A DNA stretch of 64,000 nucleotides from Candidatus Magasanikiibacteriota bacterium (GTDB lineage Bacteria > Patescibacteriota > Patescibacteriia > Magasanikbacterales > UBA922), in assembly GCA_014729395.1 (NCBI GenBank), contig WJJZ01000006.1, forward strand, positions 7,090 through 71,089, in the 5' to 3' direction. Below the pieces are notes generated by a model that saw only the letters and a program-made list of their open reading frames with translations, did no database searches and was not told the DNA's origin. Shown one piece after another: positions 1,868-50,783 of this stretch; position 1 is the stretch's first letter, and each line of letters starts with the position of its first letter. A program made the position numbers and the translations under genes.

Positions 1868-4800
1868 CTATATCGGGTTACATGTTGTTGATATTTGAAA
1901 CGGGGATGAGCGATTGTAGAGACCGTCTATTATAAAATAGTAAATAGTCCCACCCGTAGTCTGAAACTCCCAGGAATCGCTATACCCCCCGCTCGCGCCG
2001 GCGGCGTATTTGTCGGCCGAACAATCGGCAGCCAAAACGATAATGTCCACGTCATCAGTCATGTTGTCAATTGTCAGATTGACATTCATATCAATATCAG
2101 TCGTGAATACATACACTCGTTCCGGGCCGTTGTAGTTGACCAGGTTTCCACCGTAGTTTAATCGGTTATTCTCATAACCGATAGTGGAGCCGTTTACAAC
2201 CACTCCACACTCAACAATACCACCACCATACTCCGAGCCTTCGTAGCTCGTGGAGCAGACAGTATCGGAACCACTACATTCCAGAGTACCTTCGCCACAG
2301 GCGGCCTCAGTCTCCAGACAAGGATCAGCCGCGATGTTGTCTATCTCATCATCGCAGTCATTATCCTCGCCATCGCAGATTTCGTCGCTCGGATCAGGAG
2401 CATCGCAATCTACCCAGTCGCCCGAGTCATTGCAGTACTCCAGTCCGGACCCGCACAGACTACTACATTCACGAGTCAGGTTTTCGTCACCATCGTCGCG
2501 ACCATCGCAGTCATCGTCCAGGCCGTTGCAGAGTTCTTCGGGTTCGGGACCGCAGTCGCCGCAAGCGTTGCGTACACCCTCATCAACATCGCCATCGCAG
2601 TCATCGTCCAAGTTGTTACACTCTTCGCTCGATGGACGACCGGGGGTACAGGTACCTTCCGGCTGGCCGTTGACACAGCTGACCACTGCCGTGGCCTCGC
2701 ATTCGCCTACACCACATTCAATGGTATAGTCATCGAGACCTTCGTCAATGTCACCATCACAGTCGTCGTCCAGGCCGTTGCACTCCTCGTCAGACGGCGT
2801 ACCCGCCTCACAAGTGTTAACTTCCTCGCCGGCGATGCATACGATGTTGCCGACAGACGCGCACTCACCCTGACCACAAGTAGTCTCGGGTTCAGCCAAG
2901 TCTTCGTCGGTTTCACCATCACAGTCGTCGTCAAGTCCGTTGCACTCTTCGTTAGTGGGGGTGCCGGGTTGACAGCTGTCTACCATCTCGCCGTTTTGGC
3001 AAGAGAGTAGACCGGTGGAAAAGCACTCGCCTTCACCGCAGCCGGTTTCAGAATCCGGTATGTCTTCATCAGTCTCACCATCGCAGTCGTCGTCCAGACT
3101 ATTGCAGGCTTCTGCTTGACTACCGGGTTCTACCAGAGCTACGCAAACGGGCAAGGCTTCTTCAGCACAGATTTTCTCGCCGTCACGGCAAATGCCGAAA
3201 TTGACTTCAACCGTACAGGTATCGCCCAGTCCGGGCAATTCGTCGGTTTCACCATCGCAGTCATTGTCTTCGCCGGGATTGAAACAAGTTTCTTCTTCCG
3301 GAAGAACCTGCTCCAAACATTGCAGATCCCAAGTATAGTCTTCAAGACACACTTGGTATCCTTCTTGGCAAATTCCAATGCCGCGTGTCTCGGCCGACCC
3401 TTCATAACAGGTCTGGGTTTCAGGATCCTGATCGTCATATCGGCAAGGACAGTCCTCATCAACATGACCATCGCAGTCATCGTCCAGACCGTTGCAGGTT
3501 TCTTCCTGTGGGTCAACCGTTCCGACACAGGTGAAAGTCCGTACTTCATTTTCAGTGGTACAGACTTCGCGACCAATGCGGCAAATGCCGGTACTGGTGG
3601 TTCCGCATTCAGAAGGCTCATCACCGGGTTCAACCGGTGGGTTGCCTTCATCCACCAGGCCATCGCAATCGTCGTCGCGGCCATTGCAGAGTTCTATTGC
3701 CCAGGGGTTGACCTCCGGGTTTGATTCGTCGCAGTCGGCTTCACCAAAGAAGCCATCCTGGTCAAAATCTTCTTCCGGACATGGTACATCCCCGGCCAGA
3801 CAATCTTGATCCAAGCCGTCACCACAACGTTCCGGAGCACCCGGGTACATGGTGGGATCGTCGTCATTGCAATCGGCTGAAAAATCGTACCCGTCCCGGT
3901 CACTGTCATTTTCAGGACAGGCCAGGTCTTCACCGTCGCAATCCTGGTCAATGCCATCACCACAAAGTTCCGGAGCATCGGGGAAAATTCCCGAATCAAA
4001 GTCGTTGCAGTCGGCCTGGGTGACCCAACCATCGCGATCAACGTCATCTGGCCATTCCGTAGTCGCAAAAATGCCGTCGCAGTCCTGGTCAATACCGTCA
4101 TCAGGAATGTCTTCGGCATCAGGATGAACGGAGTTGTCGTAGTCGTTGCAATCCCGTATGGAATCATGTTCGGCATCAGCATAGTAGCCGTCTCGATCTT
4201 CATCCCGCTCATACAACGGATTATCCGCTCTCCCGTCGCAGTCGTTGTCCATTTCGTCGATGACTTCCGGTGCTCCGGGGTATACCAGAGCGTTTTCATC
4301 ATTGCAGTCAAGGATGGCTATCCAGCCATCATTATCAGCGTCGGTCTGGTCGCAAATCAAGTCCTCACCATTGGAATCCTCATCAACTCCGTTGCTGCAG
4401 AAGCAGGGTCGGTTTTCAAAGGAAGTCGGTTGGTAAGGGTGAATATCTTGCGCCTTGGTACTGTCAAGTGCTTCAGAACAAATGATGGACACCCCGGGAT
4501 CGTCCAGATAAATCCGGTACTTCTCTTGAAGAGTGTCGTCATTGTCCTCTGCGTCATTGAAATTCGATCGGAGTGAGTCGTCCAGGTTTTCACAGCAACC
4601 GGGAACAGTCTCACCGGTATCATCAAGACAATGGTAGAAGCTGTCCCCATCCGAGTCGCATTCCGGTCGGTATTCTTCGAGCTGAATGGAAAATTCTTTG
4701 TTCTTTTTCACATTCAGCCTTCCGGAGTAGGTAGCAATTATATCGCCACCGGAGGACATACCTACAATATGCAAATAAATGACAGTACTTTGTGACGAGT

Positions 4801-5059
4801 TAATTCCGACATCAACGGGGTCAACCCTAATGTCGTTCTCAAATCCCGAAAATTCCTCCACTTCAGAGTGGATCTCTCGGTAATTGCCTTCTTCATCCTC
4901 TTTTTTGATAAGAAATCTGAGAAGGACGATTTCTTCAGTATCGATGCCAGCTTCCGCGCTAACATGAAGGATAAACGGATACTCCTCGTCTCCGCAGCCA
5001 ACGATACTTGCAAAAAAGGCCAATCCAAGAATACAAAGAGTGGTTTGTCTAATGCTCAT
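1868..5059 (-). CDS. 1063-aa secreted Cys/Asp-rich repeat lipoprotein. It has an N-terminal lipobox-type signal (..ASIVGC). Residues ~240-470 carry five MopE-like putative metal-binding motifs (DC(N/D)D...PGAPE...D.DCDG) with Asp-rich Ca-binding-like loops. Residues ~458-905 carry eight to nine ~55-aa Cys-rich repeats centred on ECNGLDDDCDGETDE. The C-terminal ~120 aa form a pre-peptidase-C-terminal (PPC)-like beta domain.
   Basis: Long ORF with a strong SD (AGGAGGTG) before the ATG at 5059. Motifs were read from the translation. GC and codon usage (GAC/TGC/GGC) are clearly higher than in neighbouring genes. Confidence 0.7.
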   Translation of the reverse strand: MSIRQTTLCILGLAFFASIVGCGDEEYPFILHVSAEAGIDTEEIVLLRFLIKKEDEEGNYREIHSEVEEFSGFENDIRVDPVDVGINSSQSTVIYLHIVGMSSGGDIIATYSGRLNVKKNKEFSIQLEEYRPECDSDGDSFYHCLDDTGETVPGCCENLDDSLRSNFNDAEDNDDTLQEKYRIYLDDPGVSIICSEALDSTKAQDIHPYQPTSFENRPCFCSNGVDEDSNGEDLICDQTDADNDGWIAILDCNDENALVYPGAPEVIDEMDNDCDGRADNPLYERDEDRDGYYADAEHDSIRDCNDYDNSVHPDAEDIPDDGIDQDCDGIFATTEWPDDVDRDGWVTQADCNDFDSGIFPDAPELCGDGIDQDCDGEDLACPENDSDRDGYDFSADCNDDDPTMYPGAPERCGDGLDQDCLAGDVPCPEEDFDQDGFFGEADCDESNPEVNPWAIELCNGRDDDCDGLVDEGNPPVEPGDEPSECGTTSTGICRIGREVCTTENEVRTFTCVGTVDPQEETCNGLDDDCDGHVDEDCPCRYDDQDPETQTCYEGSAETRGIGICQEGYQVCLEDYTWDLQCLEQVLPEEETCFNPGEDNDCDGETDELPGLGDTCTVEVNFGICRDGEKICAEEALPVCVALVEPGSQAEACNSLDDDCDGETDEDIPDSETGCGEGECFSTGLLSCQNGEMVDSCQPGTPTNEECNGLDDDCDGETDEDLAEPETTCGQGECASVGNIVCIAGEEVNTCEAGTPSDEECNGLDDDCDGDIDEGLDDYTIECGVGECEATAVVSCVNGQPEGTCTPGRPSSEECNNLDDDCDGDVDEGVRNACGDCGPEPEELCNGLDDDCDGRDDGDENLTRECSSLCGSGLEYCNDSGDWVDCDAPDPSDEICDGEDNDCDDEIDNIAADPCLETEAACGEGTLECSGSDTVCSTSYEGSEYGGGIVECGVVVNGSTIGYENNRLNYGGNLVNYNGPERVYVFTTDIDMNVNLTIDNMTDDVDIIVLAADCSADKYAAGASGGYSDSWEFQTTGGTIYYFIIDGLYNRSSPFQISTTCNPI
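2345..3690. repeat. Intragenic tandem DNA repeats of ~150-170 bp (eight to nine copies) encoding the Cys-rich ECNGLDDDCDG modules of the giant lipoprotein
   Basis: Recurring ...catcgcagtcgtcgtccaggccgttgca... blocks near 2511, 2600, 2756, 2912, 3080 and 3470. Confidence 0.6.
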
Positions 5060-11744: not shown

Positions 11745-12886
11745 ACGGTAAAAAGATTTTAATTTTTTCCACCGCGTATTTTCCTCTTATTGGCGGGGCG
11801 GAGGTAGCAGTAAAAGAGATAACGGATAGAATGAATGGTTATGATTTTGATATGATAACTTGTCGAATGAACAGAAGTTATCCGAAGCAAGAAAAAATTG
11901 GCAATGTCAATGTGGTTCGCATAGGACCGGGCGTACCTTTATTGGATAAAATATATCTGGCATTTTTTGGTCACAGAAAAGCCTTAAAACTGCACAAACA
12001 GAATAACTATTGTTTGGTTTGGTCGATAATGGCGAGTTTCGGTGGTTTTGCCGCTTTGCGTTTCAAAGAGTTAACTAATGTTAAATTTTTGTTAACTTTG
12101 CAAGAAGGTGACTCGATTGATTATATTTTAAAGCGAGTTAGGTTTTTGAAGAAGAGATTCAAACAAATTTTTGTCAAGGCCGACAGCCTTCATGCTATCA
12201 GTAATTATTTGTTGAAATGGGGAAAAGACATGGGTTTTCAAGGAAAGATCGCTAAAGTAATTCCAAATGGGGTGAATGTTGAACAATTCGCAGCTAACAA
12301 TTCGCAGCTATCAGATTACACTGGTCAGACTAGGGCTGAATTAGATATAAACAGCGATGATAAATTAGTTATAACAGTTTCTAGATTGGTAGAAAAGAAT
12401 GGGGTGGGGGATTTGATAAAGGCAATGGAAAAATTACCGGAAAATGTAAAGTTATTGGTGGTGGGGAGTGGTAAACTGGAGCAAGAATTAAAAAATTTGG
12501 CACGGCATTTGAGCTTAGATAAACGTGTTTATTTTTTAGGATTTGTTCGACATGACCAATTGCCAAAATATCTATGGGCGAGTGATGTTTTTTGTCGACC
12601 TAGTCTTTCCGAAGGTCTGGGTAATGTTTTTTTGGAAGCCATGGCAGCAAAAGTTCCGGTAGTGGGCACATTAGTCGGTGGAATTCCGGATTTTTTGGAT
12701 GACGGCGAGACAGGTTTTGTGTGTAAGCCGGGGAATCCGAGGAGTATTGCCGAAGTTATAAAAAAGGTAATTAATTTAGCGCATGAGAAAAAAAAGGAAA
12801 TAGAAAAAAACTCAATTGATCTTGTGCGTAAAAAATATAATTGGGAAGATATTACTAAAAAAATGGAAGAGTTAATGCAGGTTTAA
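11741..12886 (+). CDS. GT4-family glycosyltransferase
   Basis: C-terminal [28 protein letters not shown] motif. 4-bp overlap with the upstream gene. Confidence 0.75.
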
Positions 12887-12981
12887 AAATACCAGCCTCA
12901 GTTTTAATTAATTGCCGGGTTGGCGGTTGGAAACCAACGACAGGTGACATAGTTTACTTTTATTTGTAAAGACAGAATTTT

Positions 12982-13899
12982 ATGAAGAGGGCACTTTTGA
13001 TTAATCCACAGTTTAATATAGCAAAGGAGAATTATGACAGCTCAATTTCAGTTGGGCTTTTGAGTATTGCGTCGTATTTGGATAGTAAAGGGATAGGAGT
13101 AAAAATTGTTGATTGCGTACGCGAGACCAACTATTTAAAAAAAATAAGAAAATATGCCCGCAGTACTGATTATGTCGGGATTTCTGTAATGACAACGCAA
13201 TTGTCAAATGCTTTACGTTTATCAAAGCTTGTAAAAAAAGTTAATCCCTCTTGTAGAGTAGTGTGGGGCGGACCACATGCAACTTTTTTTAAGGAGCAAT
13301 GTGTCGAATCAAAATTTGTAGATATGGTATGTGTAGGAGAAGGCGAAGAGACTTTTTATGAAATTGTAAATGGTGTTGATCCGGAGAAAATTTTAGGAAT
13401 CGTTTATAAAAAAGATGGGGACATAAAAAAAACTTCGGCTCGACCTTTGCACGATCCTACAAAAATGCCTTTGTTTAATTGGGATTTGATCGCACCGGAG
13501 GTTTTATATAATTTAAAACTTGTCCCCACTCTCACTTCAAGAGGCTGCCCCCATATATGTTCTTTTTGTATCAACGCCATCCTTAAATTAAAGTGGCGTC
13601 AGAGAACAGCGGAACAGGTACTTGTGGATTTGGAAGTGATAAAAAGTAAAACATATTTTAAAGGTAAAAAGTTAAGATTTTGGGATGAGAATTTTTTTGT
13701 TGATATTAAGCGCGCCAAAACCATAGTAAAGGGAATGATAGAAAGAAATCTTATCACTCCGTGGGAGACAACAGTCCGCGCCAATTATATACGGGATGGG
13801 ATGATTGATAACGCTTTTTTAAAGGATATTAAACAAAGTGGTTGTTATCTGTTATCATTTGGTGCGGAATCCGGTTGTCCCAGAATTTTAAAAAAATAA
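12982..13899 (+). CDS. B12-binding radical SAM protein, N-terminal part (cobalamin-binding domain plus CxxxCxxC cluster RGCPHICSFC). It ends at a TAA inside an A7-T-A8 run.
   Basis: B12-binding-like N-domain followed by the radical SAM cysteine triad. The reading frame is interrupted at 13897-13899. Confidence 0.65.
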   Translation: MKRALLINPQFNIAKENYDSSISVGLLSIASYLDSKGIGVKIVDCVRETNYLKKIRKYARSTDYVGISVMTTQLSNALRLSKLVKKVNPSCRVVWGGPHATFFKEQCVESKFVDMVCVGEGEETFYEIVNGVDPEKILGIVYKKDGDIKKTSARPLHDPTKMPLFNWDLIAPEVLYNLKLVPTLTSRGCPHICSFCINAILKLKWRQRTAEQVLVDLEVIKSKTYFKGKKLRFWDENFFVDIKRAKTIVKGMIERNLITPWETTVRANYIRDGMIDNAFLKDIKQSGCYLLSFGAESGCPRILKK

Positions 13900-14426
13900 A
13901 AAAAATGATTGATCCAAAGGATATCATTAGGTCAGCAAAAATGTGCTTAAAACATGATATTATCCCCCAATATTCTTTTATGATAGGCTTGCCCGGTGAA
14001 GAAAAGAATGAGATGATGGAGACATTGAAATTGATTGATAAATTAGTAAAATTGAGTTCCAAAGTTCAAATTTTAGGCCCACAGGCTTTTAGGCCATACC
14101 CGGGTTCTGAGCTATATGAGGAGTGTGTAATGTCTGGTTGGAAAGCACCGGAAACCCTTTATGAGTGGTCTGATTTGGTTGAAAATGAATTAAATTATTT
14201 GACTGTACAAAATTTCCCCTGGGTTAAACATAAGGATTTTGTGGAATCCATGGAAGCTTATGTAAGATTTGGAGCTCACAATATCAAAAGTGCTTTGGGT
14301 TCAACAGTTAGTAGTAATAAATTATTGAAATTGAGTTTTATTTTGCTATGTAAACTACGCTGGAAATTAAAATTTTTTAATTGGCCAGTTGAATTTAAAT
14401 TAGCTAAAAAGTTTGTTAGTAAATAA
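13842..14426 (+). CDS. C-terminal continuation of the same B12-binding radical SAM protein in the -1 frame (interrupted gene, pseudogene, sequencing indel or recoding site)
   Basis: From ...KKIKKMIDP onward the translation continues the radical SAM domain (IGLPGEE...). Joining at the A-run gives ...ESGCPRILKKIKKMIDP.., a normal ~500-aa B12-rSAM. Confidence 0.55.
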   Translation: MLSVIIWCGIRLSQNFKKIKKMIDPKDIIRSAKMCLKHDIIPQYSFMIGLPGEEKNEMMETLKLIDKLVKLSSKVQILGPQAFRPYPGSELYEECVMSGWKAPETLYEWSDLVENELNYLTVQNFPWVKHKDFVESMEAYVRFGAHNIKSALGSTVSSNKLLKLSFILLCKLRWKLKFFNWPVEFKLAKKFVSK

Positions 14427-14431
14427 AAAAT

Positions 14432-15556: not shown

Positions 15557-16626
15557 AAATATTTAGTTTTAGTATTGATAAAAATATATTGGAACCAAAT
15601 TCAATCGTTGCAAAGAGAATGATTTGGTTTGACAATTTTGTTGATAAATACTGTATTATTGTGCCGTCTATAAAAAAAATAAGAGTGAGCCTGTCCTATA
15701 AAATAGAGGTATTTGCTAGTGGTGGTAGATCAAAAATTAGCCAACTTTTTAAAATTTACAAGCTGGCAAACAGGTTACTAAAACAAGAGAACTATGATAT
15801 TATAACCTCTCAAGATAACTATTATATTGGATTTTTAGCTTTAATTTTAGCAAAAAAATTTGATATTGGTTTGGAAATCCAGGTTCACGGTTGGGAAAAG
15901 TATGGAGGGTTAAGAAAAATAATTAGTAATTTTATTTTAAAGAGGGCTAATATTGTACGTACAGTCAGTAAACGTTCAAAAGATAAGCTTGTTAAAGAAA
16001 TTGGCTTAGAGGCTGAAAAGATAGCGGTAATTCCAATTTTTGTAGATACTTCAGATTCTTATGGTTTTGAAAGAGATTATCGTGAAAAAGAAAAAATTAT
16101 TTTTTTGACCGTAAGTAGACTGACTTCTGTAAAAAATATTGGTATGCAAATTGAGGCAATTAAGAAGTTGGTAGAAAATAAATTGCAGGTAGAGTTATGG
16201 ATTGTTGGCAAAGGCGAAGAAGAGAATAACTTAAAGAAAAAAATAGGAGAATTAAAATTAGAGAATTATGTTAAATTACTTGGCTATAAAAATAAGCCGG
16301 AGTTAAATGAAATTTACAAACAAGCTGATTGTTTTTTATTAACTTCACAAAGTGAAGGTTGGGGTATGGTAATTATTGAAGCGGCCGGTTTTGGTCTTCC
16401 AATTATAATGACAGATGTAGGTTGTGCCGGTGAAGTGATTAAAAATGAGATTAGTGGATTGGTAATTCCAGTTAATGACAAAGAGGTATTAAGACAGGCT
16501 ATGAGAAGGTTGGTAGAAGACGTTGAGCTTAGAAAGGGTTTGGGTGTTACTGCTCGAGAAGAGGTTGAAAAATTAGCAGATAGAAAAGAGACCTTAGAAT
16601 TATATTTAGATAATTGGCGTATGTAA
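15553..16626 (+). CDS. GT4-family glycosyltransferase
   Basis: SEGWGMVIIEAAGFGLPIIMTDVGCAGEV motif. 4-bp overlap with the upstream gene. Confidence 0.7.
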   Translation: MKIFSFSIDKNILEPNSIVAKRMIWFDNFVDKYCIIVPSIKKIRVSLSYKIEVFASGGRSKISQLFKIYKLANRLLKQENYDIITSQDNYYIGFLALILAKKFDIGLEIQVHGWEKYGGLRKIISNFILKRANIVRTVSKRSKDKLVKEIGLEAEKIAVIPIFVDTSDSYGFERDYREKEKIIFLTVSRLTSVKNIGMQIEAIKKLVENKLQVELWIVGKGEEENNLKKKIGELKLENYVKLLGYKNKPELNEIYKQADCFLLTSQSEGWGMVIIEAAGFGLPIIMTDVGCAGEVIKNEISGLVIPVNDKEVLRQAMRRLVEDVELRKGLGVTAREEVEKLADRKETLELYLDNWRM

Positions 16627-16628
16627 TT

Positions 16629-17477
16629 ATGCATTCACTAGGTCCTGGTTTGTGTTCCAAGATTAAAATATTTTTTATGAATAAATTTATAATGAATAAG
16701 TTAGTAAAGGCCAAAGCAGAAGCTGAGTCTTTGGCTCATGTTGGCTTATTTTCAAAAACGGATTGTTATTGCTTTTTTATTGGTTACGCGAGGAGTGGTC
16801 ACAGTTTGGTGGCCTCTATCATTGATGCACATCCAAATGCCGTTATAGCTCAAGAATTTCCTGTTGTTGACTATTTAAGACTTGGTTACAATAATCGACA
16901 AATTAAGTACTTAACATTTAAACATGCTAAAAAATTTTACAAAAATGATTATGTTGTTGGTGGGTATAAATATCATATACCAAACCAACATCAAGGTTCT
17001 TTTACTGATATTAGAGTTATAGGTACAAAAAAAGGGGGTAGAAAAAATATTTTTTTTATGAAGGAACCTAATTTGTTAAGTAAAATTCCTGAGAATACAA
17101 AATTCGTACATATAACGAGGAATCCTTATGATATAATGTCAGCGATGATGACTAAGTGGAAAAAGGGTTTTAATTTTCATTTTAATTTGTTTTTTTCAAT
17201 TTGTGATGCAAATTTATTTATCAAACAAAATATTAGTGATAAAAATATACATAATTTGAGACATGAAGATTTTGTTCATGAACCAAAAAGAGAAATTACA
17301 AAGTTATGTGATTTTCTAGGTTTAAAGACGTGCAACAGTTATCTTAACGATTGTGTTTCAATTATAAAAGAAAAACCACATGAAAGGAGATATGAGTTTG
17401 ATTGGAGTAAAGAAATGATCGAAAGAGTTAAAGAAAAAATAGAAGATTATAATTTTTTAAAAGATTATACATTTTGA
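16629..17477 (+). CDS. Sulfotransferase family protein (PAPS-dependent type). The start is uncertain: the ORF opens at TTG 16614, and ATGs at 16629 and 16677 are alternatives.
   Basis: 5'-PSB-like FFIGYARSGHSL near the N-terminus and 3'-PB-like HITRNPYDIMSA mid-protein. Confidence 0.6.
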   Translation: MHSLGPGLCSKIKIFFMNKFIMNKLVKAKAEAESLAHVGLFSKTDCYCFFIGYARSGHSLVASIIDAHPNAVIAQEFPVVDYLRLGYNNRQIKYLTFKHAKKFYKNDYVVGGYKYHIPNQHQGSFTDIRVIGTKKGGRKNIFFMKEPNLLSKIPENTKFVHITRNPYDIMSAMMTKWKKGFNFHFNLFFSICDANLFIKQNISDKNIHNLRHEDFVHEPKREITKLCDFLGLKTCNSYLNDCVSIIKEKPHERRYEFDWSKEMIERVKEKIEDYNFLKDYTF

Positions 17478-18591: not shown

Positions 18592-19320
18592 ATGGAATTT
18601 AAAAAAAAAGAAAAAAAATTTTTAATAGTAGGTACCGGTAGAACCGGATCTTCTCTGCTATCTGCAATACTTTTAAAAAGTGGTGCAGATTTTGGCCTGA
18701 GGTCCAAAGATATTTGGGATAGACAAAAGGGCGATTTTGAACACTCGCTTATTCATGAAGCCTATAAATGGCAATCTAGGGTAGAAAAAATAGACCAATC
18801 AATACTGCCGAATTATTTTACAGTTTCTTTTTTTAACAATATTTGTAATAAGAAAATGGAGCAATTATTGACAGAAGTTGATTATGTAAAATCAAGTCAA
18901 TTAGTCTGGTTGGTTCATAGGGCTAAATACAAATTGGGTTTTGAGGTCAAAGTTATTGGAGTTTACAGGAATTTCTCTGATTATGTGATAAGTAGATATA
19001 AGAAATATGGAAGAAGTCTGGATCACTGGAGAAAAGAGTGGTTGGAGGTAAACAAAACACTTTTTTTGCAGGCTCAAATTATTCCTTCTCTGTTATTAAG
19101 TTATGAAGAAATTGTTGGTAGAAATGAAACTAAATGGATAGATAGGTTGGCACTATTTACAAATATAAGCAGAGAAAAATTAAGTTTTGCAGCCAATGAG
19201 ATAGTAGATAAAAAAAGTCACAAGAGAATTATGCAATATAATTTTGAAGATGACGACACCAGAAGAGTCTATAATCGGTTAAAGATGTTTAGTAATAAGT
19301 CCTCTATAGATAATAGATAA
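18592..19320 (+). CDS. Sulfotransferase family protein
   Basis: FLIVGTGRTGSSLL 5'-PSB-like motif and a mid-protein YRNFSDYVISRY motif. Confidence 0.65.
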   Translation: MEFKKKEKKFLIVGTGRTGSSLLSAILLKSGADFGLRSKDIWDRQKGDFEHSLIHEAYKWQSRVEKIDQSILPNYFTVSFFNNICNKKMEQLLTEVDYVKSSQLVWLVHRAKYKLGFEVKVIGVYRNFSDYVISRYKKYGRSLDHWRKEWLEVNKTLFLQAQIIPSLLLSYEEIVGRNETKWIDRLALFTNISREKLSFAANEIVDKKSHKRIMQYNFEDDDTRRVYNRLKMFSNKSSIDNR

Positions 19321-19356: not shown

Positions 19357-20232
19357 ATGCCAGTAAATAAATGCAATTTATTTTTTATAGTGGGCTCATA
19401 TCGATCCGGTACAACTTTATTGAGGAATATTTTGAATTTACATGAGGACGTGGCCGTGGTGCCGGAAATGCATTTTTTTGACAATTTGATTGCTAACAGA
19501 AAAAAATATGGTGATATTAAAAAAAGAAAAAATAAGGTTGAGCTTGTGGATAACATATTTTTTAAAATAAAGAATTTTAATATTAGCCGTGGTGATTATT
19601 GGGAGAATATCAATTTGGATCATAAGTTATTAAAAAGTAAAATGTTAGACTGTACTGATTTGCGTGAATTATTTTTTGTTTTAGCCAGTTCTTTGTCAAG
19701 CAAGAATTCTTTCTCTGTTTTGATTGAAAAGACTCCGTATAATGTGTTCTTTTTAGAACAAATTACTGAGTTGTTTCCTGAAGCAGGAATAATACACATA
19801 ATTAGAGATGGACGAGAGGTCTGTGCTTCGGCCTGTAAAAGATGGGGTCTTGATTATTTAGGCCCGGCCACCAGGTGGAAAGATTCTATTAAAAGTTATG
19901 AAAAATATAATAAAAAAAATAAAGATAAGAAGGAAAAATTTATAGAAATTAGATATGAAGATTTAGTAGATGAACCAAAAAATACTATAAATAAAATTTT
20001 TAAATTTATAAATTTGGGATTAAACGAAAGTTTTTTTGAAAGAATGTCTGATCTCCCGTCTACAAGTTCATTTACTAGATATAAAAAAAATTTTGGCCTG
20101 TATAAAAGTAATAATTTTAAAAAATTTTTTTCTGATTCAGAACAGGATATAATTAACTATTTACTATATGAAGAGCTTAAGAAAAAAAATATAAGACCCA
20201 AACAACCAAGATTTATTTTTTTAAAAAGATAA
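19357..20232 (+). CDS. Sulfotransferase family protein
   Basis: FFIVGSYRSGTTLL and IIRDGREV (3'-PB RDGR) motifs. Confidence 0.7.
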   Translation: MPVNKCNLFFIVGSYRSGTTLLRNILNLHEDVAVVPEMHFFDNLIANRKKYGDIKKRKNKVELVDNIFFKIKNFNISRGDYWENINLDHKLLKSKMLDCTDLRELFFVLASSLSSKNSFSVLIEKTPYNVFFLEQITELFPEAGIIHIIRDGREVCASACKRWGLDYLGPATRWKDSIKSYEKYNKKNKDKKEKFIEIRYEDLVDEPKNTINKIFKFINLGLNESFFERMSDLPSTSSFTRYKKNFGLYKSNNFKKFFSDSEQDIINYLLYEELKKKNIRPKQPRFIFLKR

Positions 20233-20340: not shown

Positions 20341-21213
20341 ATGAATAAGCCAAGATTACATTATATTGGGATCGGTGGGCAGAAATGCGCAACGAGTTGG
20401 CTATCAAAATGTATCTCTGAACACCCTGAATTAGATATTTTTCCGGGTAAGGAAATTCATTTTTTTAGTGAAACTAAAAAATACAATAAAGGCTTAGAAT
20501 TTTATACAAATTTTTTTAAAGACTGTGATTTCAGTAAGAAGGTGGGGGAGTTCAGTACGACTTATCTGAATTCTTTTAAAGCTGCTGATCGGATTAAGGA
20601 GTATTACCCGGATATTAAAATTATTGTTTCCATCAGAAATCCGATCGATCGAGCCGTCTCACATGTTAGGCATTTATTATCAACCGGAAAAATTAATTAT
20701 TTCCGTAATTGGGATGATCCGTTTTTGATAGAACAATCCCTTATCGAACGTGGATATTATGGAAAATATGTTGAATATTATATCAAACTGTTCGGTAGAG
20801 AGAATATATTGATTATTTTATTTGATGATATTTCGAATAAACCTGACAAAGTAGTTAAAGATATTTATACTTTTCTTGATGTTGATAATTCTTTTAAACC
20901 AAGCAGTATAGATAAAAAATATAATAGTAGTAATGCAAGATCTTTCTCAGCTTTTTGGTTATTAAACAATATATATTTAAAATATAGAAATAATTCATTA
21001 TTTAAAATATCAACATCAATATTTAAAAAAATGGGCATTAATTCAGTTTTGATTAATAATTTTTTTGATAAACTTGGCAAAGTTAAAATAGAAAAAATAA
21101 AATTCAAAAGAAGTGAGTTGATTGAAATATATAGAGATGATATAAAAAAAACGGAACGAATAACAAAGAGAGATTTATCGGATTGGTATACTTTTAATGA
21201 AAAAGAAATATAA
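20341..21213 (+). CDS. Sulfotransferase family protein (subfamily with an IGIG..KCATSW...HPE N-terminus)
   Basis: YIGIGGQKCATSWLSKCISEHPEL and SIRNPIDRAVSH motifs. Confidence 0.7.
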   Translation: MNKPRLHYIGIGGQKCATSWLSKCISEHPELDIFPGKEIHFFSETKKYNKGLEFYTNFFKDCDFSKKVGEFSTTYLNSFKAADRIKEYYPDIKIIVSIRNPIDRAVSHVRHLLSTGKINYFRNWDDPFLIEQSLIERGYYGKYVEYYIKLFGRENILIILFDDISNKPDKVVKDIYTFLDVDNSFKPSSIDKKYNSSNARSFSAFWLLNNIYLKYRNNSLFKISTSIFKKMGINSVLINNFFDKLGKVKIEKIKFKRSELIEIYRDDIKKTERITKRDLSDWYTFNEKEI

Positions 21214-25044: not shown

Positions 25045-27036
25045 ATGTGTGGTATATTTGGAGCAGTTATTCCAAAAAAAAATAAATTCGATGATAAAGA
25101 ATTAGAAAAGTTTACACAAAAACTTTTTAAATTTTCTGAATCAAGAGGTAAAGAAGCTTCGGGTTTAGCAAGATTGTTTCCAAAAAAAATTGATGTTATA
25201 AAAGAACCTTTTCCAAGCTCTTTTTTAACAAAAATACATAAATTCAAAAAAATTATAAGTGAAAAATCTGACTCTTTTGTAATTATGGGCCATACCAGAT
25301 TGGTTACGAATGGGACACTTGAAAAAAAAGAAAATAATCAACCGGTAGTAAGAGAAGATATTGTTACCGTCCATAATGGAATTATAGTAAACGAAAAGGA
25401 TATATGGTCCGAGATTAAAGATGTTGAACGTGAGTTTGAAGTGGATACGGAACTAATCCCGGTTTTGTTAAGGAAATATTTAAAAAACGGTGACAGTTTT
25501 TCGATTGCAATTTCAAAGACGTTTTCTAAAATAGAAGGTATGGCTTCTATTTGTGCTTTTTTTACGGATTCAGACCATATTTTACTTGCCACAAACAATG
25601 GTTCATTGTATTTTTTAAAAGATAAAAATAATTATCTTATATTTGCATCTGAATATAATATTTTGAAATCTCTGTGTAAAAAATTTAAAAGTCAATTTAC
25701 AGAGGAAAACATTAAGAAATTGAATGCAAACAAAGCTTGTCTTGTGAATACGAGGGATTTGGAAGAGTTAATTTTTTTTGATTTAACTGATGAAAAAGCA
25801 GTCGCCAATAATAATTTGAACATTATAAATACCACCAAACGTACTATTAATGTGTTACCGAGTGAGAAAGCAAATCATTATAATATTACTCAAAATGTAA
25901 ATTATAATGATAGACAAGATTTTATTGATAATTCTGATTATGAAAAGATAAAAAAAATGCGTAGGTGTAAAATATGTATTTTGCCCGAGACTATGCCTTT
26001 CATAAATTTTGATAAAAATGGAATTTGCAATTATTGTAAAAGTTATAAGAAAATTAAACTAAAAGGAAAAGAAAAATTGAATGATGACATTAATAAATAT
26101 TTAAATAAAAAAACAGACAAGATTGTCGTTGCTCTAAGTGGTGGAAGAGATTCTTGCTACGGACTCCATTATGCGAAAACGGTTTTAGGGCTGAATGTGG
26201 TAACTTTTTCTTATGATTGGGGTATGATTACCGACTTGGCTCGACGTAACCAGTCTAGAATGTGTGCCAAATTGGGTGTAGAGCATATTTTAGTATCAGC
26301 CAATATAAAAAGAAAAAGAGAAAATATTAAAAAAAATGTAAAAGCCTGGCTTAGAAAACCTGATTTGGGAACCATACCTTTGTTTATGGCCGGAGACAAA
26401 CAATATTTTTATTATGCTAACAAAGTAATGAAGCAAACCGCATCTAGAGCTATAATAATGAGTGAAAATAATTTGGAAAGAACGCATTTTAAACATGGTT
26501 TTTGTGGGGTTGAACACAATGATAATATCAGGCCGGCTTATTTTTTGTCCAGTGGGGATAAATTTAAGATGATGCTGTATTTTTTTAAAAAGTTTGTTGG
26601 AAATCCCGGCTATATCAATAGTTCGCTACTTGATTCATTTGGTGGTTACCTATCTTATTATTTCGTTCCGCATAATTACATTTATTTGTTTAATTATGTT
26701 CCGTGGCTAGAAAGTAATGTTAATAATGTTTTGGTTAACGAATACAATTGGGAGTTAGCTGGCGACACTGAATCAACTTGGCGGATAGGAGATGGGACAG
26801 CTCCATTTTATAATTATATTTATTATACCGTAGCCGGATTTACAGAAAACGATACTTTTCGTAGTAATCAAGTTAGAGAAGGGATTATATCAAGGGAGGA
26901 AGCTTTAGAATTGGCAGATAGAGACAATCAACCTAGATTGGAATCGATAAAATGGTATTGTGACACAATCGGTATTGACTTTAAAGAAAGTTTAAAAATT
27001 ATTAATTTAATTCCCAAATTATATGGTGATGTTTAA
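25045..27036 (+). CDS. Two-domain amidotransferase. The N-terminal class-II (Ntn, asparagine-synthase-type) glutamine amidotransferase domain is fused to a PseA/WbpG-like N-acetyl-sugar amidotransferase (Zn-ribbon plus PP-loop ATP pyrophosphatase).
   Basis: Starts with MCGIFG (catalytic Cys2) and has GHTRLVTNG and VHNGIIVN. The middle has CKICILPE...CNYC and the PP-loop VVALSGGRDSCY. Confidence 0.6.
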   Translation: MCGIFGAVIPKKNKFDDKELEKFTQKLFKFSESRGKEASGLARLFPKKIDVIKEPFPSSFLTKIHKFKKIISEKSDSFVIMGHTRLVTNGTLEKKENNQPVVREDIVTVHNGIIVNEKDIWSEIKDVEREFEVDTELIPVLLRKYLKNGDSFSIAISKTFSKIEGMASICAFFTDSDHILLATNNGSLYFLKDKNNYLIFASEYNILKSLCKKFKSQFTEENIKKLNANKACLVNTRDLEELIFFDLTDEKAVANNNLNIINTTKRTINVLPSEKANHYNITQNVNYNDRQDFIDNSDYEKIKKMRRCKICILPETMPFINFDKNGICNYCKSYKKIKLKGKEKLNDDINKYLNKKTDKIVVALSGGRDSCYGLHYAKTVLGLNVVTFSYDWGMITDLARRNQSRMCAKLGVEHILVSANIKRKRENIKKNVKAWLRKPDLGTIPLFMAGDKQYFYYANKVMKQTASRAIIMSENNLERTHFKHGFCGVEHNDNIRPAYFLSSGDKFKMMLYFFKKFVGNPGYINSSLLDSFGGYLSYYFVPHNYIYLFNYVPWLESNVNNVLVNEYNWELAGDTESTWRIGDGTAPFYNYIYYTVAGFTENDTFRSNQVREGIISREEALELADRDNQPRLESIKWYCDTIGIDFKESLKIINLIPKLYGDV

Positions 27037-28090
27037 TGTAGCAAAATCAATTGTCAAAAATAAATTTAATAAAATTTCCTATCCTTCTTTTATTACCTAT
27101 TTAATCACATGGCGTTGTAATAGCCGGTGTATTTTTTGTGATGTGTGGAAAAAGAGAGCCGGGCAAATTGATGAGCTTGATATCGATGAAATAGAAAAGG
27201 CATTTTCTCAATTAAAAAAGCTCGATGTCTTGCGTTTGAGCGGGGGAGAGCCTTTTCTTAGAAAAGATTTGGCAGAAGTGATAAATTTGATCGATAAAAT
27301 TAACAAGCCAAGTCTAATTCATTTAACGTCCAATGGAATGCTGACCGAAATAATATCTGAAACTGTAAAGAAAATTAAGCCTTTAAATAAAATCCATATC
27401 AAGATTTCAATAGATAATGTGGGTGAGAAACATGATAAAGTTCGACAAATACCCGGCGCATACAATAAGGCAATGGAGACAGTAAGGATGTTGTCTAATG
27501 TCAGTAAAGAGACCGGTCTTCATGTTGGGGTTAATCAAGTGGTCGTGAATGAATCTGATATAGATTCGTATTTTGAATTAAAGAAAATTTTGAGTGAATA
27601 TAATGTACCGATTTATCCGGTTATTGCCAATCAACCAACTAATAGTCTGTATAGTGACAGTGGTGTGGTAGACCCCAACATATCTTTCAAACCTTTTGGG
27701 GATTTTTCAAAAGAGGGTATTAAAAAATTTATGAAGATTTTACTGAGACATGGTAAAGAGGTGAATGATTTTAAAGAGCAAATGGTGGATAGGTACCATT
27801 TAAAGGGTTTGTATAATCGTTTAGTAGAGGAGAAAAATAATCCTAATCCGAAGTGTGTAGCATTGAATAACCACCTAAGAATTTTACCAAATGGTGATAT
27901 TCCGGTATGTATGTATAATGGTTCTATAGTTGGTAATTTGAGAAATGAAAAATTTAAAGATATTTGGTTTGGAGACAAAATTAAAAAATATAGAACTTAT
28001 GTTAATAATTGTCCCGGTTGTTGGCAGAGTTGTGAGACAGCCGTAAGTGCTATTTATACCGGTGATATTATGAAAGGTATGTTTTATTAA
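27023..28090 (+). CDS. Radical SAM / SPASM-type enzyme
   Basis: CNSRCIFC (CxxxCxxC) near the N-terminus, a GGEPFL glycine-rich motif, and a C-terminal Cys cluster CPGCWQSC. It overlaps the upstream amidotransferase by 14 nt. Confidence 0.65.
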   Translation: MVMFNVAKSIVKNKFNKISYPSFITYLITWRCNSRCIFCDVWKKRAGQIDELDIDEIEKAFSQLKKLDVLRLSGGEPFLRKDLAEVINLIDKINKPSLIHLTSNGMLTEIISETVKKIKPLNKIHIKISIDNVGEKHDKVRQIPGAYNKAMETVRMLSNVSKETGLHVGVNQVVVNESDIDSYFELKKILSEYNVPIYPVIANQPTNSLYSDSGVVDPNISFKPFGDFSKEGIKKFMKILLRHGKEVNDFKEQMVDRYHLKGLYNRLVEEKNNPNPKCVALNNHLRILPNGDIPVCMYNGSIVGNLRNEKFKDIWFGDKIKKYRTYVNNCPGCWQSCETAVSAIYTGDIMKGMFY

Positions 28091-28136: not shown

Positions 28137-28967
28137 ATGAATATAGTTTTTATACTTGGGAGTGGACATTGTGGTTCAACATTGCTTGACCTTATTTTGG
28201 ATTGTCATTCTAAAATAATCGGGGTTGGTGAATTTGAAAATGTAGGTAAGGAGAAACTGTGTAGTTGTGGCAGGGATTTTGAGGAGTGCGAGCTTTGGAA
28301 AAATATTTTAAAGCATAGGGATTTGTCGAAATTGAAGATATTTAGAACTAAAAAAGATTTTTTGTTAAACAAAAATAATTTTTATTACTATAAAAAAGAG
28401 ATGCGGTCGGTTGATTTAAATTCCTATATTACTGAGAATGAAAATATGTTTGATCAGGTTTTGGGTTTTTTTGACCAAAAGAAGGATTTTATAGTTGATT
28501 CTTCAAAGAACGTTGATAGATTTGAGCTACTTTTTAAAAGTAATTATATTAGACCGATTATTTTACATGTTGTCCGTGATGGTCGGGCTGTAACCTGGTC
28601 ATATTTTAAAAAGTACAAGAAAGCTATGCCTTATATGTGGAAATGGTTTGCACAAAATTTTAAAATTTATTATCTAAAAAAAAGAAACAAAGCGGATTAT
28701 GTTTTTGTACGTTATGAAAACTTAGCTAAAAATCCTAAAAAAGAAATTGAACGTATACTTAATAGCTTAGGTTTGGTTTATGAAGAGAATATGTTAAATT
28801 TTAGAAATTTTACTCATCATCAGGCTGGTGGTAATAGAATGCGTTTGTCCGGCACTAATGAGATAAAAGAAGATGTAAGTTGGAAAAAGAATTTACCTAT
28901 GAAATATCGACTGTTATTCAATATTTTGTTTGGCTGGTTAAATTTTTATTATGCAAGAAAAAGGTAA
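28137..28967 (+). CDS. Sulfotransferase family protein
   Basis: VFILGSGHCGSTLL and VVRDGRAVTWS motifs. Confidence 0.65.
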   Translation: MNIVFILGSGHCGSTLLDLILDCHSKIIGVGEFENVGKEKLCSCGRDFEECELWKNILKHRDLSKLKIFRTKKDFLLNKNNFYYYKKEMRSVDLNSYITENENMFDQVLGFFDQKKDFIVDSSKNVDRFELLFKSNYIRPIILHVVRDGRAVTWSYFKKYKKAMPYMWKWFAQNFKIYYLKKRNKADYVFVRYENLAKNPKKEIERILNSLGLVYEENMLNFRNFTHHQAGGNRMRLSGTNEIKEDVSWKKNLPMKYRLLFNILFGWLNFYYARKR

Positions 28968-29850
28968 TAAATTTAAAATTAATTTTATTGGCGTGGGGAC
29001 ACCAAGAAGCGGTACTACATGGATATCCAAATGTTTATCTGAACACTCGCAAATTTGTTTCTCAAAGGAAAAAGAAACTCATTTTTTTGATAAAGATTAT
29101 AATTTTGACAAGGGTCTGGAATACTACCGGTCTTTTTTTGAAAATAAAGAGAAGCAAGAGGGTGTGATTCTGGGTGAATTTACACCGAGCTATTATCGTG
29201 ATGAGAAGTGCGCAAAAAGAATTAAAACATTTTTTCCTGATGTAAAAATTATATTATGTTTGAGAAATCCCGTTGATAGAGCTCTGTCTGATTATCGTTA
29301 CAATAAAAAGAGAGGTGCTAAGCTGGGTCAAAATTTACTTGAAGAGCCTGAATTAAACTTGGATGAAAGAGTGGTGTCAGACGGTTTTTTTTATAATCAT
29401 TTAGAAAAGTTTTTAATTCCTTTTAATTTCAATAATATTCATATTATCCTGCATAAAGATATTAAAAAACACCCGGATAAAGTTCTTAGAAAGCTTTATG
29501 ATTTTTTGGGGGTGAATAATGATTTTATTCCGTCCTCGCTACATCAGAGGGTCAACACCACCGAAGGCACCAATTATCGTTACCCGGCGATAAATAGAAT
29601 TATTAATTATAGAAAAAAATTGAAAAACGATGCTGTAGGTCGATTTATATTAAATATTTTTAAATTACTTGGCATTGGTTATTTGTCAAAAAAGTTAATT
29701 CAAGCCAATAAGACATCCAAACAAAAAAATATTTTTTCTGAAGAGGAAATTAACAATTTTAAAATAAAATTATTTGATGTTTACTTAAAGGATATTAATA
29801 AATTGGAAGACTTGATAAAAAAAGATCTTAGTATATGGAAACAGATTTAG
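28951..29850 (+). CDS. Sulfotransferase family protein (IGVG..RSGTTW...HSQI subfamily)
   Basis: FIGVGTPRSGTTWISKCLSEHSQI and LCLRNPVDRALSDY motifs. Confidence 0.7.
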   Translation: MQEKGNKFKINFIGVGTPRSGTTWISKCLSEHSQICFSKEKETHFFDKDYNFDKGLEYYRSFFENKEKQEGVILGEFTPSYYRDEKCAKRIKTFFPDVKIILCLRNPVDRALSDYRYNKKRGAKLGQNLLEEPELNLDERVVSDGFFYNHLEKFLIPFNFNNIHIILHKDIKKHPDKVLRKLYDFLGVNNDFIPSSLHQRVNTTEGTNYRYPAINRIINYRKKLKNDAVGRFILNIFKLLGIGYLSKKLIQANKTSKQKNIFSEEEINNFKIKLFDVYLKDINKLEDLIKKDLSIWKQI

Positions 29851-40112: not shown

Positions 40113-41501
40113 ATGAACATCTTATACATCGGAGGAGGTTTTGTCGGGACATGTTCGGCCGCGGTGTCCGCTGATAGTGGCCACAATGTTTTGGTCTATG
40201 ATATTGATGAAAAGAAAATTGATAAGCTAGGTTCATACCAAAAAGACAGGATTGAATCTTGTATGTTTGAGGAAGGCCTTTATGATTTGTTGTCCAGAAA
40301 TAAAGAAAGAATTAAATTTACTTCGGATTATTCCAAAGTAAAGAATTTTCTCGATAAAGCACATGTTGTTTTTATGTGTTTACCAACGCCGGAGATCGGC
40401 GAGACGGGTGAGAGCGATTTAAGTTTTTATTTTGACGCAGCGGAAAAATTGGCAAATACATTAATTAAAAGGCAAGACGGAAAGCAAGATAATTATATTG
40501 TAATTGTAAATAAAAGCACGGTACCGATTGATATGGTTGGCAAGACAAAAGAAATAATGACCCAAGCCGGAGTAAAAAAATTTGGCGTTGTTTCAAACCC
40601 TGAATTTTTGGTTGAGGGTAAAGCGGTTCATGGTTCTGTGAGGCCTGACAGGGTTGTTATTGGTGGAGAGACTGAAAAGGATTTTGAAATAATGCGCAAA
40701 CTTTATGATCGTTTTTACAGTTCTTCCGGTGTAAAATATATTGAGGTTGGGGCAGGAGAAGCGGAAGCGGGTAAGTTACTTTCAAATTATTTATTATTCA
40801 ATAAATTGACTCAGTGTTTTGATGTGGTGGGTCGTACCTGTGAAACTTTTCCGGATTTGAAATTTGAGAACGTCAGAAAAATATTGATTACAGACCCTAG
40901 AATTGGTAATTGGGGTCTATATGATAGTTTGTATGCCGGTGGAAGTTGTTTTATAAAAGACTCCAGATCTTTATCCTATCAATTACAGACGGCAGGCAAA
41001 AATGCCACACTGGTAAATGAGTCTTATTTGGCAAATAAGCGCCAATTGGAATTATTTATAGGTCGTGCAGAGAGAGAATTGGATTATAATTGGGAGGGTA
41101 AAAAGGTGGCCTTACTAGGCTTGGCTTTCAAGCAAGACACGAATGATATTAGGAATGCCCCGAGTATAAATATAGTTAATTTTTTACTTGAGAATAGAGT
41201 GGAAGAAATAAAATGTTATGATCCGGTAGCCAATGGCGATTTTAAAAGATTGTTTGAACAGAGTAAAGAAGTTAAGTATTTTGAAACTGCTCTTGAGGCT
41301 TTACAGGACACAGATGCTGTCATCATAGCTACAGATTGGCCTCAATTTAGGGGTTTATATGACAGTTTGGTCGGACTTTATCGCGGTAAAAAAGGTTTAA
41401 TTATGGACGGTAGACGGATGCTCCAACATAAATATAATGATCTCTCTAGAGAAGGTTTTGATATTATAGCGGTCGGCTCTCCTTTACTTAAAGCTAAATA
41501 A
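40113..41501 (+). CDS. ugd: UDP-glucose 6-dehydrogenase family nucleotide-sugar dehydrogenase
   Basis: N-terminal GGGFVG NAD fold and a catalytic GGSCF.KD motif. Confidence 0.7.
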   Translation: MNILYIGGGFVGTCSAAVSADSGHNVLVYDIDEKKIDKLGSYQKDRIESCMFEEGLYDLLSRNKERIKFTSDYSKVKNFLDKAHVVFMCLPTPEIGETGESDLSFYFDAAEKLANTLIKRQDGKQDNYIVIVNKSTVPIDMVGKTKEIMTQAGVKKFGVVSNPEFLVEGKAVHGSVRPDRVVIGGETEKDFEIMRKLYDRFYSSSGVKYIEVGAGEAEAGKLLSNYLLFNKLTQCFDVVGRTCETFPDLKFENVRKILITDPRIGNWGLYDSLYAGGSCFIKDSRSLSYQLQTAGKNATLVNESYLANKRQLELFIGRAERELDYNWEGKKVALLGLAFKQDTNDIRNAPSINIVNFLLENRVEEIKCYDPVANGDFKRLFEQSKEVKYFETALEALQDTDAVIIATDWPQFRGLYDSLVGLYRGKKGLIMDGRRMLQHKYNDLSREGFDIIAVGSPLLKAK

Positions 41502-41504
41502 AAT

Positions 41505-50708: not shown

Positions 50709-50783
50709 TTTGCTATAATTGATTCAGATACGCATAATATTGTATTATTTTTATTATAATTTAACTTATTAAAATTAAAAAAT

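Follow-up and report, generated by a model that had tools for sequence, protein, structure and literature searches.

A one-adenine shortfall in a run of lysine codons splits a cobalamin-binding radical SAM gene of a Candidatus Magasanikiibacteriota bacterium, probably without programming

What is to be made of a gene that stops in the middle of a run of adenines and resumes, in another frame, on the far side of it? The question is raised by a stretch of 64,000 nucleotides (nt), here called the window (contig WJJZ01000006.1 of assembly GCA_014729395.1, positions 7,090 to 71,089), from a Candidatus Magasanikiibacteriota bacterium, in which a gene for a B12-binding radical S-adenosylmethionine (SAM) enzyme falls into two open reading frames (ORFs) at an A7-T-A8 run. 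The original prediction offered three candidates for the break: a homopolymer indel introduced in sequencing or assembly, a phase-variable (slipped-strand) switch of a glycan-modifying enzyme, and programmed −1 frameshifting as in dnaX. An indel, be it an assembly error or a genuine 1-nt deletion, fits the evidence; frameshifting and a phase switch find no support. Judged from the sequence, the break appears to be a lineage-specific and non-programmed shortfall of one base in a homopolymer that exists only through its Lys-Lys codons. That this shortfall is a genuine deletion from A8 to A7, either recent or still segregating, is put at about an even chance.

The break lies on the + strand, where positions 13886 to 13907 of the window read TTTT AAAAAAA T AAAAAAAA TG, and the elements on which the argument turns are as follows.

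12982–14426, + strand: the whole interrupted gene, which, with one A put back, codes for a 481-residue class B (cobalamin-binding) radical SAM enzyme.
12982–13899, + strand: the upstream ORF of 305 residues, with the B12-binding domain, the CPHICSFC motif at residues 189–196 and the first two thirds or so of the radical SAM core.
13890–13896, + strand: the A7 tract, at which the frame breaks; it forms an in-phase A_AAA_AAA heptamer.
13897–13899, + strand: the premature 0-frame TAA, made up of the T and A of an ancestral ATA (Ile) codon and the first A of the next Lys codon.
13898–13905, + strand: the second A tract, A8, read in the −1 frame as (AT)A AAA AAA A(TG), that is Ile-Lys-Lys-Met.
13905–14426, + strand: the downstream ORF as deposited, 173 residues from ATG 13905, with the last third of the radical SAM core and the C-terminal region.

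The upstream ORF ends within the run in ...CPRILKK-TAA (...FGAESGCPRILKK-TAA), as had been read from its PRILKK terminus. The 0-frame codons here are TTA AAA AAA TAA; A_AAA_AAA thus stands in the X_XXY_YYZ phase with a stop immediately 3', and positions 13890–13896 have the form of a slippery heptamer for a −1 shift. The −1 frame carries on as KKIKKMIDP, again as stated: it is open from 13842, passes through ...KKIKKMIDPKD... and stops at 14424–14426. In silico, the insertion of one A into the first run is equivalent to re-reading base 13896, and both give the identical product. A single −1 slip does restore the full protein, as claimed, at a length of 481 rather than about 500 residues. The junction peptide of the restored protein reads ...SGCPRILKKIKKMID, and with it ILKKIKK, a conserved motif of the homologues, is regained. 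The second tract doubles as an A-rich leader in front of ATG 13905.

Homology confirms, far beyond chance, that a single gene comprises both ORFs. Homologues of the restored protein number more than 4,800; the best 120 (E ≤ 1e-220, 64–75% identity) are all uninterrupted and 476–519 residues long, most of them exactly 481, the modal length; the named members among these 120 belong to Patescibacteria. The junction aligns with them without a gap, inside the strongly conserved segment FGAESG(C/S)PRILKKIKK, and the Lys of alignment column 389 is invariant in 121/121 sequences. The proposed identity as a B12-binding radical SAM enzyme is upheld by Pfam, which places the cobalamin-binding domain PF02310, and with it the class B assignment, at residues 23–128 (E = 1e-20). 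The Radical_SAM profile PF04055 is shared out between the ORFs, with positions 3–118 in the first and 118–166 in the second; only the fusion gives the complete 3–166 match, each deposited ORF being partial, and in the restored protein this full core accompanies the [4Fe-4S] motif CxxxCxxC (CPHICSFC). Within Patescibacteria it represents an ordinary orthologue of a widespread 481-residue cobalamin-type radical SAM enzyme.

None of the curated subfamilies (HpnJ, BchE, PhpK, MgmA and others) claims the protein, all NCBIfam scores lying far under their cut-offs; the top match, HpnJ, reaches 149 bits against a cut-off of 577.6. The nearest solved structure, 9CCB, is distant (E = 8e-19) and represents MgmA, the B12-dependent glutamine C-methyltransferase of methyl-coenzyme M reductase (MCR) (PMC11796369). 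Both enzymes have an N-terminal B12-binding domain, the CxxxCxxC motif and the radical SAM core, and their GxESG...L..(I/M)KK segment can be aligned across the junction; the genomic context of the window enzyme points to a glycan, rather than a protein or a lipid, as its substrate.

In the public record the two halves stand apart. MBD3311240.1 (GF349_01930), found by protein search to be 100% identical to the upstream ORF over its 305 residues, and MBD3311241.1 (GF349_01935), which starts at ATG 13905, were annotated separately as "hypothetical proteins" by the Prokaryotic Genome Annotation Pipeline (PGAP). Both form single-member clusters and come from one NCBI metagenome-assembled genome (MAG), on a contig of 107,222 bp. 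At 305 residues, the protein search with the N-terminal ORF found only its own deposited protein; the next-best relative is 71% identical over the N-terminal part and 75% over the whole protein. To find an independent copy of the species, the N-terminal ORF and two genes next to it were looked up by exact match, and no contigs came back.

Is the break, then, a shared property of the family or a peculiarity of this genome? Junction DNA was compared across 76 species-representative genomes and 15 metagenome contigs, 91 junctions in all. All 91 are in frame at the break site, and none of the best 120 homologous proteins is truncated or shifted there. Where the Leu codon is TTA (CTA in L060), the codons TTA AAA AAA ATH form an A8 run; this arrangement was found in 13 genome loci and in all 15 metagenome contigs, always in frame. 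In three genomes (L007, L008, L073) the junction reads TT-A8-T-A7, and the tract of the window is the orthologue arrangement minus exactly one A. A degenerate DNA pattern for the A7 state had 0 matches in the metagenome collection, a search of limited power given that the matching A8 pattern had only 15.

The loss of one A from TTA AAA AAA ATA gives TTA AAA AAA TAA, and therefore the in-phase heptamer and the adjacent stop both arise automatically. The two would accordingly count as by-products of one deletion, with no independent signal in either. Among the orthologues the tract measures 2–8 A, and AAA, AAG and the Leu codons vary freely; since its length shifts through synonymous changes, the tract lacks conservation at the nucleotide level. 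Were the slippery site functional, synonymous changes in it should be suppressed.

Broken copies of the gene do occur in other genomes, at other places. Three of 80 orthologous loci are frameshifted (L067 near residue 100, L070 near residue 154 and L075 near residue 100), and a fourth, L064, lacks a stretch near its C-terminus; the breaks lie at different positions, all of them outside homopolymers. Their coordinates are L067:6270-6340, L070:6430-6490, L075:6270-6340 and L064:3290-3400; the break of L070 falls inside a GCGCGCGC stretch and that of L067 beside a GGCACGGCAC repeat. The three frameshifted loci were considered as evidence of a shared mechanism and rejected, being broken elsewhere and outside homopolymers. 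Interrupted MAG copies are thus not rare and are heterogeneous, the pattern expected from sporadic mutation or error.

Could A7 nonetheless be the normal state, in which a −1 slip, with a slow TAA helping, or the transcriptional insertion of an A yields full-length enzyme in a meaningful proportion, so that the break sets the level of the enzyme? For such functional recoding speak the perfect X_XXY_YYZ phase of the heptamer with its stop immediately 3', a shifted product identical to the ancestral protein and a downstream frame that has not decayed. The likeness to dnaX of E. coli (A_AAA_AAG) lies in the phase of the Lys-Lys heptamer and in the −1 direction of the shift. dnaX, however, has an upstream Shine-Dalgarno-like stimulator and a strong downstream stem-loop, whereas at the window site no stimulators were found and the site is not conserved. 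The roles of the shift differ as well: in dnaX it yields a shorter second product, while here it is needed for the only functional one.

The search for stimulators covered both sides of the heptamer. No Shine-Dalgarno-like motif occurs in the 25 nt upstream. A weak A/U-rich hairpin at 13904–13928 (−4.7 kcal/mol) starts 7 nt past the heptamer, within the 5–9 nt at which a stimulatory stem-loop or pseudoknot would be placed, yet it is not distinctive: the downstream 94 nt fold no better than shuffles (z = +0.52), as does a 111-nt stretch across the site (z = −0.24), and the −6.3 kcal/mol of the 50 nt after the heptamer is equalled or surpassed in stability by 28 of the 76 intact orthologues. Promoter, terminator and repeat scans around the site gave nothing above expectation. 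The shift site itself recurs in 0/120 proteins and 0/91 junctions, that is, in no relative examined.

The heptamer is also too common in this genome to be a signal. With approximately 19,900 codons, the window genes contain 77 in-phase copies of A_AAA_AAA, which makes more than one copy for each gene; AAA accounts for 78% of the Lys codons. Efficient slippage on it would damage most proteins and ruin the cell, and spontaneous slippage must therefore be low. In E. coli, heptamers without stimulators shift at only 2–10 times a background of 0.055% (PMC4066793), and A_AAA_AAA is much less shift-prone than A_AAA_AAG (PMC5009743). By analogy, the ribosomal route to the full-length enzyme would supply well under 1%. 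Corrective frameshifting, for which there is a precedent (PMC5009743), is a further point on the side of recoding.

The transcriptional route has precedents of its own in rescue by A runs. In C. rodentium tssM1 (A11, PMC4256274), as here, a stop stands beside an A run and one inserted A restores the protein; other slippage sites are A9 and A8 runs in insertion sequence (IS) elements, the A9 of T. thermophilus dnaX and the A8 of apoB (PMC1088944). The known productive sites, however, have 8–11 A, mostly at least 9, and are conserved or experimentally shown, whereas here there is an A7 in one assembly, with orthologous runs of 2–8 A that are all in frame. Single-base insertions climb exponentially with run length (PMC5574713), and selection against A/T runs is typically seen from 9 nt, the length from about which transcriptional slippage matters in most bacteria (PMC1088944). 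The 64 kb of the window hold 231 A/T runs of 6, 142 of 7, 73 of 8 and 4 of 9, with 9 as the maximum length. The drop from 8 to 9 is a signature of selection against slippage-prone runs, as in Baranov et al. 2005 (PMC1088944), and A7 is on the safe side of the window's own cut-off. All the apparent signals follow automatically from a one-A deletion. Programmed −1 frameshifting as in dnaX is unsupported, and functional recoding by either route is very unlikely.

If the missing A is not a signal, was it lost by the organism or by the consensus sequence? A sequencing, assembly or polishing artefact would mean that the organism has A8 and an intact 481-residue gene, from whose consensus one A was dropped. 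Such an error is suggested by a defect of exactly 1 nt in an 8-nt homopolymer, a classic error site, by the high conservation of a family in which almost every relative has the gene intact, and by a source that is a single MAG without an independent copy. Antonov et al. 2013 (PMC3711429) ascribe singleton frameshifted genes either to an indel mutation or to an error of sequencing, and where a single homologue spans both parts, sequencing error is the expected cause in most cases (PMC3711429). The state of the downstream part points the same way, its 176 codons being fully open and all 75 of the 75 positions that are at least 95% conserved among the 120 homologues being retained (98 of 101 in the upstream part). 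Given the 25% divergence from the nearest relative, this lack of downstream decay means that purifying selection acted on the downstream frame until very recently; it fits an artefact, a very young or segregating mutation, or ongoing translation alike.

On the other side stand the remaining homopolymers of the window. An in-silico ±1 scan flagged, together with the break site, the junctions at about 23.6, 28.9, 31.0 and 52.3 kb and a G5 site at 2957–2961. The four junctions were rejected as split genes, Pfam showing separate complete genes on either side. Only the break site was found as a homopolymer-split gene in the 64 kb, the flagged G5 site lying outside the Pfam check, despite 219 other A/T runs of at least 7 (77 of them at least 8). 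Since none of these runs was found to break a gene, homopolymers are not a general source of error in the assembly, and miscalls at them are rare at most. This argues against an uncorrected long-read artefact and still allows a rare miscall. In short-read assemblies with the coverage implied by a 107-kb contig, consensus miscalls of 8-mers are uncommon. A genuine deletion is favoured because the other 219 runs are clean and on the assumption that this is a short-read assembly, and an artefact is considered possible, if doubtful.

The surroundings of the gene bear on the idea of a switch. It sits in a glycan cluster of about 30 kb (window about 6184–34298) that comprises a Wzy_C/TPR protein, a UXS-like epimerase, many GT4 genes, two GT2 genes, a PMT_2 protein, SAM methyltransferases, an LPG_synthase_TM protein, an AsnB-like amidotransferase and a SPASM radical SAM gene (27023–28090). 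Sulfotransferase genes are unusually numerous in the cluster, which has at least seven of them (16614–17477, 18592–19320, 19357–20232, 20341–21213, 28137–28967, 28951–29850 and others); together, the genes of the cluster suggest a heavily sulfated surface polymer. GT4 neighbours stand beside the orthologue in 62–68 of the 80 loci and the UXS-like gene in 36. The epithet "glycan-modifying" in the original prediction is a reasonable, if putative, reading of this context.

In many Patescibacteria loci, one or two paralogous B12-binding radical SAM genes (25–39% identity) directly adjoin the orthologue, for example at L001:8627-9886 and 12212-13426, L009:7465-8661 and L036:7458-8708, an arrangement that points to tailoring enzymes forming a small tandem family. 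In the window there is a single B12-binding radical SAM copy and one SPASM-type enzyme. Several assemblies with a Patescibacteria-typical cluster (L001, L007, L010, L013 and others) are titled "uncultured Gammaproteobacteria bacterium" or "Candidatus Saccharibacteria", titles that are probably placeholder or wrong labels. At 1868–5059 of the window, on the − strand, a 1063-residue ORF carries five MopE-type putative copper-binding repeats (PF11617, E = 8e-56); it lies within a GC island at about 2001–4000 (54% G+C compared with about 33% in the genome) and could code for a foreign or repeat-rich surface protein.

A phase-variable switch would turn this surface-glycan enzyme ON at A8 and OFF at A7 by slipped-strand change of the tract, and the MAG would have been caught in the OFF state. 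The location in a glycan cluster with recurrent GT4 neighbours, together with the disrupted copies in 3–4 of 80 other species, speaks for it. Homopolymer tracts in glycosyltransferase genes are a known device, as in the fucosyltransferases of H. pylori (PMC2583950), which resemble the present case in an in-ORF homopolymer, a gene of a surface-glycan cluster and ON/OFF changes by ±1 nt. Contingency tracts, however, are long, conserved as tracts and mixed ON/OFF among strains, whereas this one is a by-product of Lys codons, synonymously variable and ON in 28/28 A8 orthologues, with no A7 match in the metagenome collection to set against them. It is neither unusually long nor maintained: AAG interrupts it in many orthologues, it never exceeds the genome norm, and A7 and A8 runs are commonplace in the window. 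The other disrupted orthologues are broken elsewhere and outside homopolymers. Moreover, the mutation rate of A7–A8 tracts is far below that of the G/C tracts, at least 9 nt long, in classic contingency loci. A dedicated phase-variation switch is thus unsupported and must be regarded as unlikely.

Might the two pieces, finally, be genes in their own right? Under gene fission, the split would be real and tolerated, the pieces would be made separately and assemble, and the 173-residue piece would start at ATG 13905 by termination–reinitiation or by independent initiation. This ATG (13905–13907) lies only 5 nt past the TAA and encodes Met309, a residue found in 0/120 homologues and 0/91 junctions, where D, G, E, N, F or H stands in its place; it is among only nine positions of the protein with a residue unseen in homologues. 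Set against relatives carrying AAT, the G of ATG 13905 might mark a compensating +1 insertion; this was considered and rejected, Met309 being a substitution because the restored protein has exactly the length of its homologues. The leader AATTTTAAAAAAATAAAAAAA that precedes 13905 resembles the usual A/T-rich leaders of the genome, of the kind TAAATAAAAAAT-ATG, which are found before starts such as those at 14411–14431, 41484–41504 and 50763–50783. The Shine-Dalgarno motif is almost absent, with only 2 of 40 + strand gene starts having even a partial match to the GGAG-like motifs scanned, which suggests Shine-Dalgarno-independent initiation in this organism. The leader may therefore keep fission with reinitiation alive, and the PGAP annotation as two proteins and the perfect conservation of the C-terminal piece are in line with it.

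The break, however, falls within the radical SAM core, at Pfam position 118 of 166 and off any domain boundary, and Ile-Lys-Lys 306–308, including the Lys that is invariant in 121/121 sequences, belongs to neither piece. No other organism was found to have the gene in two pieces here. When one base was deleted in silico from each of 69 other runs of at least 8, 23% of the deletions brought up a stop no more than 3 nt away and 12% an in-frame ATG close by; the adjacent stop and nearby ATG of the present site are thus unremarkable. Fission is regarded as highly improbable.

The preferred reading, a genuine deletion, can be put as a sequence of events. The conserved Leu-Lys-Lys-Ile codons TTA AAA AAA ATA would have formed an ancestral A8, from which one A:T pair was probably lost through replication strand slippage, recently or in part of the population. 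The loss would have created the in-phase A_AAA_AAA with TAA directly behind it, and ribosomes would now terminate after ILKK, leaving a 305-residue fragment that lacks the last third of the radical SAM core and is presumably inactive. Traces of full-length enzyme might still arise in two ways, by an adventitious −1 slip of the tRNA-Lys pair on A_AAA_AAA or by the addition of one A within the run by RNA polymerase. If A7 is real, the expected products would be the 305-residue fragment, possibly a 173-residue reinitiation product, and trace full-length protein. What the analysis shows is the split itself, a tract one base shorter than in orthologues, and a site that is not conserved, has no stimulators and has not decayed; the reality of the mutation, as against a consensus error, and its leakiness are inferred.

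Several points weigh against a genuine deletion with such consequences. The source is a single NCBI MAG, in which an A8 miscalled as A7 is not separable from a genuine deletion, and the zero decay downstream suits an artefact or continued translation equally well as a recent mutation. ATG 13905, 5 nt past the stop and behind an A-rich leader typical of the genome's starts, could hint at an older split. The level of slippage is taken from E. coli, and not from the ribosomes or RNA polymerase of Patescibacteria.

Among known systems, the locus comes close to the singleton frameshifted genes of GeneTack (PMC3711429), with which it shares two adjacent ORFs in different frames, a poly-A run, one spanning homologue and a shift found in no relative. 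There is no essential difference, save that the source is here a MAG, so that population heterogeneity is possible.

For annotation, MBD3311240.1 and MBD3311241.1 are to be treated as halves of one 481-residue gene, frameshifted or with a suspected homopolymer error. The case also carries a caution: the deletion of a single base from Lys-Lys codons can by itself produce an in-phase slippery heptamer with a stop behind it; in A/T-rich genomes, such patterns should not be taken as programmed frameshift signals when they lack conservation. It is distinctly unlikely that in this very A/T-rich Patescibacterium, whose genes lack Shine-Dalgarno motifs, A7 is both genuine and kept in service, with useful full-length enzyme made at a low level by a −1 slip or by polymerase addition of an A, and with A7/A8 replication slippage acting as a population ON/OFF switch of a cobalamin-dependent glycan modification. 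Should this be true, no locus of the recoding or contingency kind would have been described earlier from the Candidate Phyla Radiation. A real deletion would mean that the population has lost or down-tuned one tailoring step of a large, sulfotransferase-rich glycan cluster, a change of modest ecological interest.

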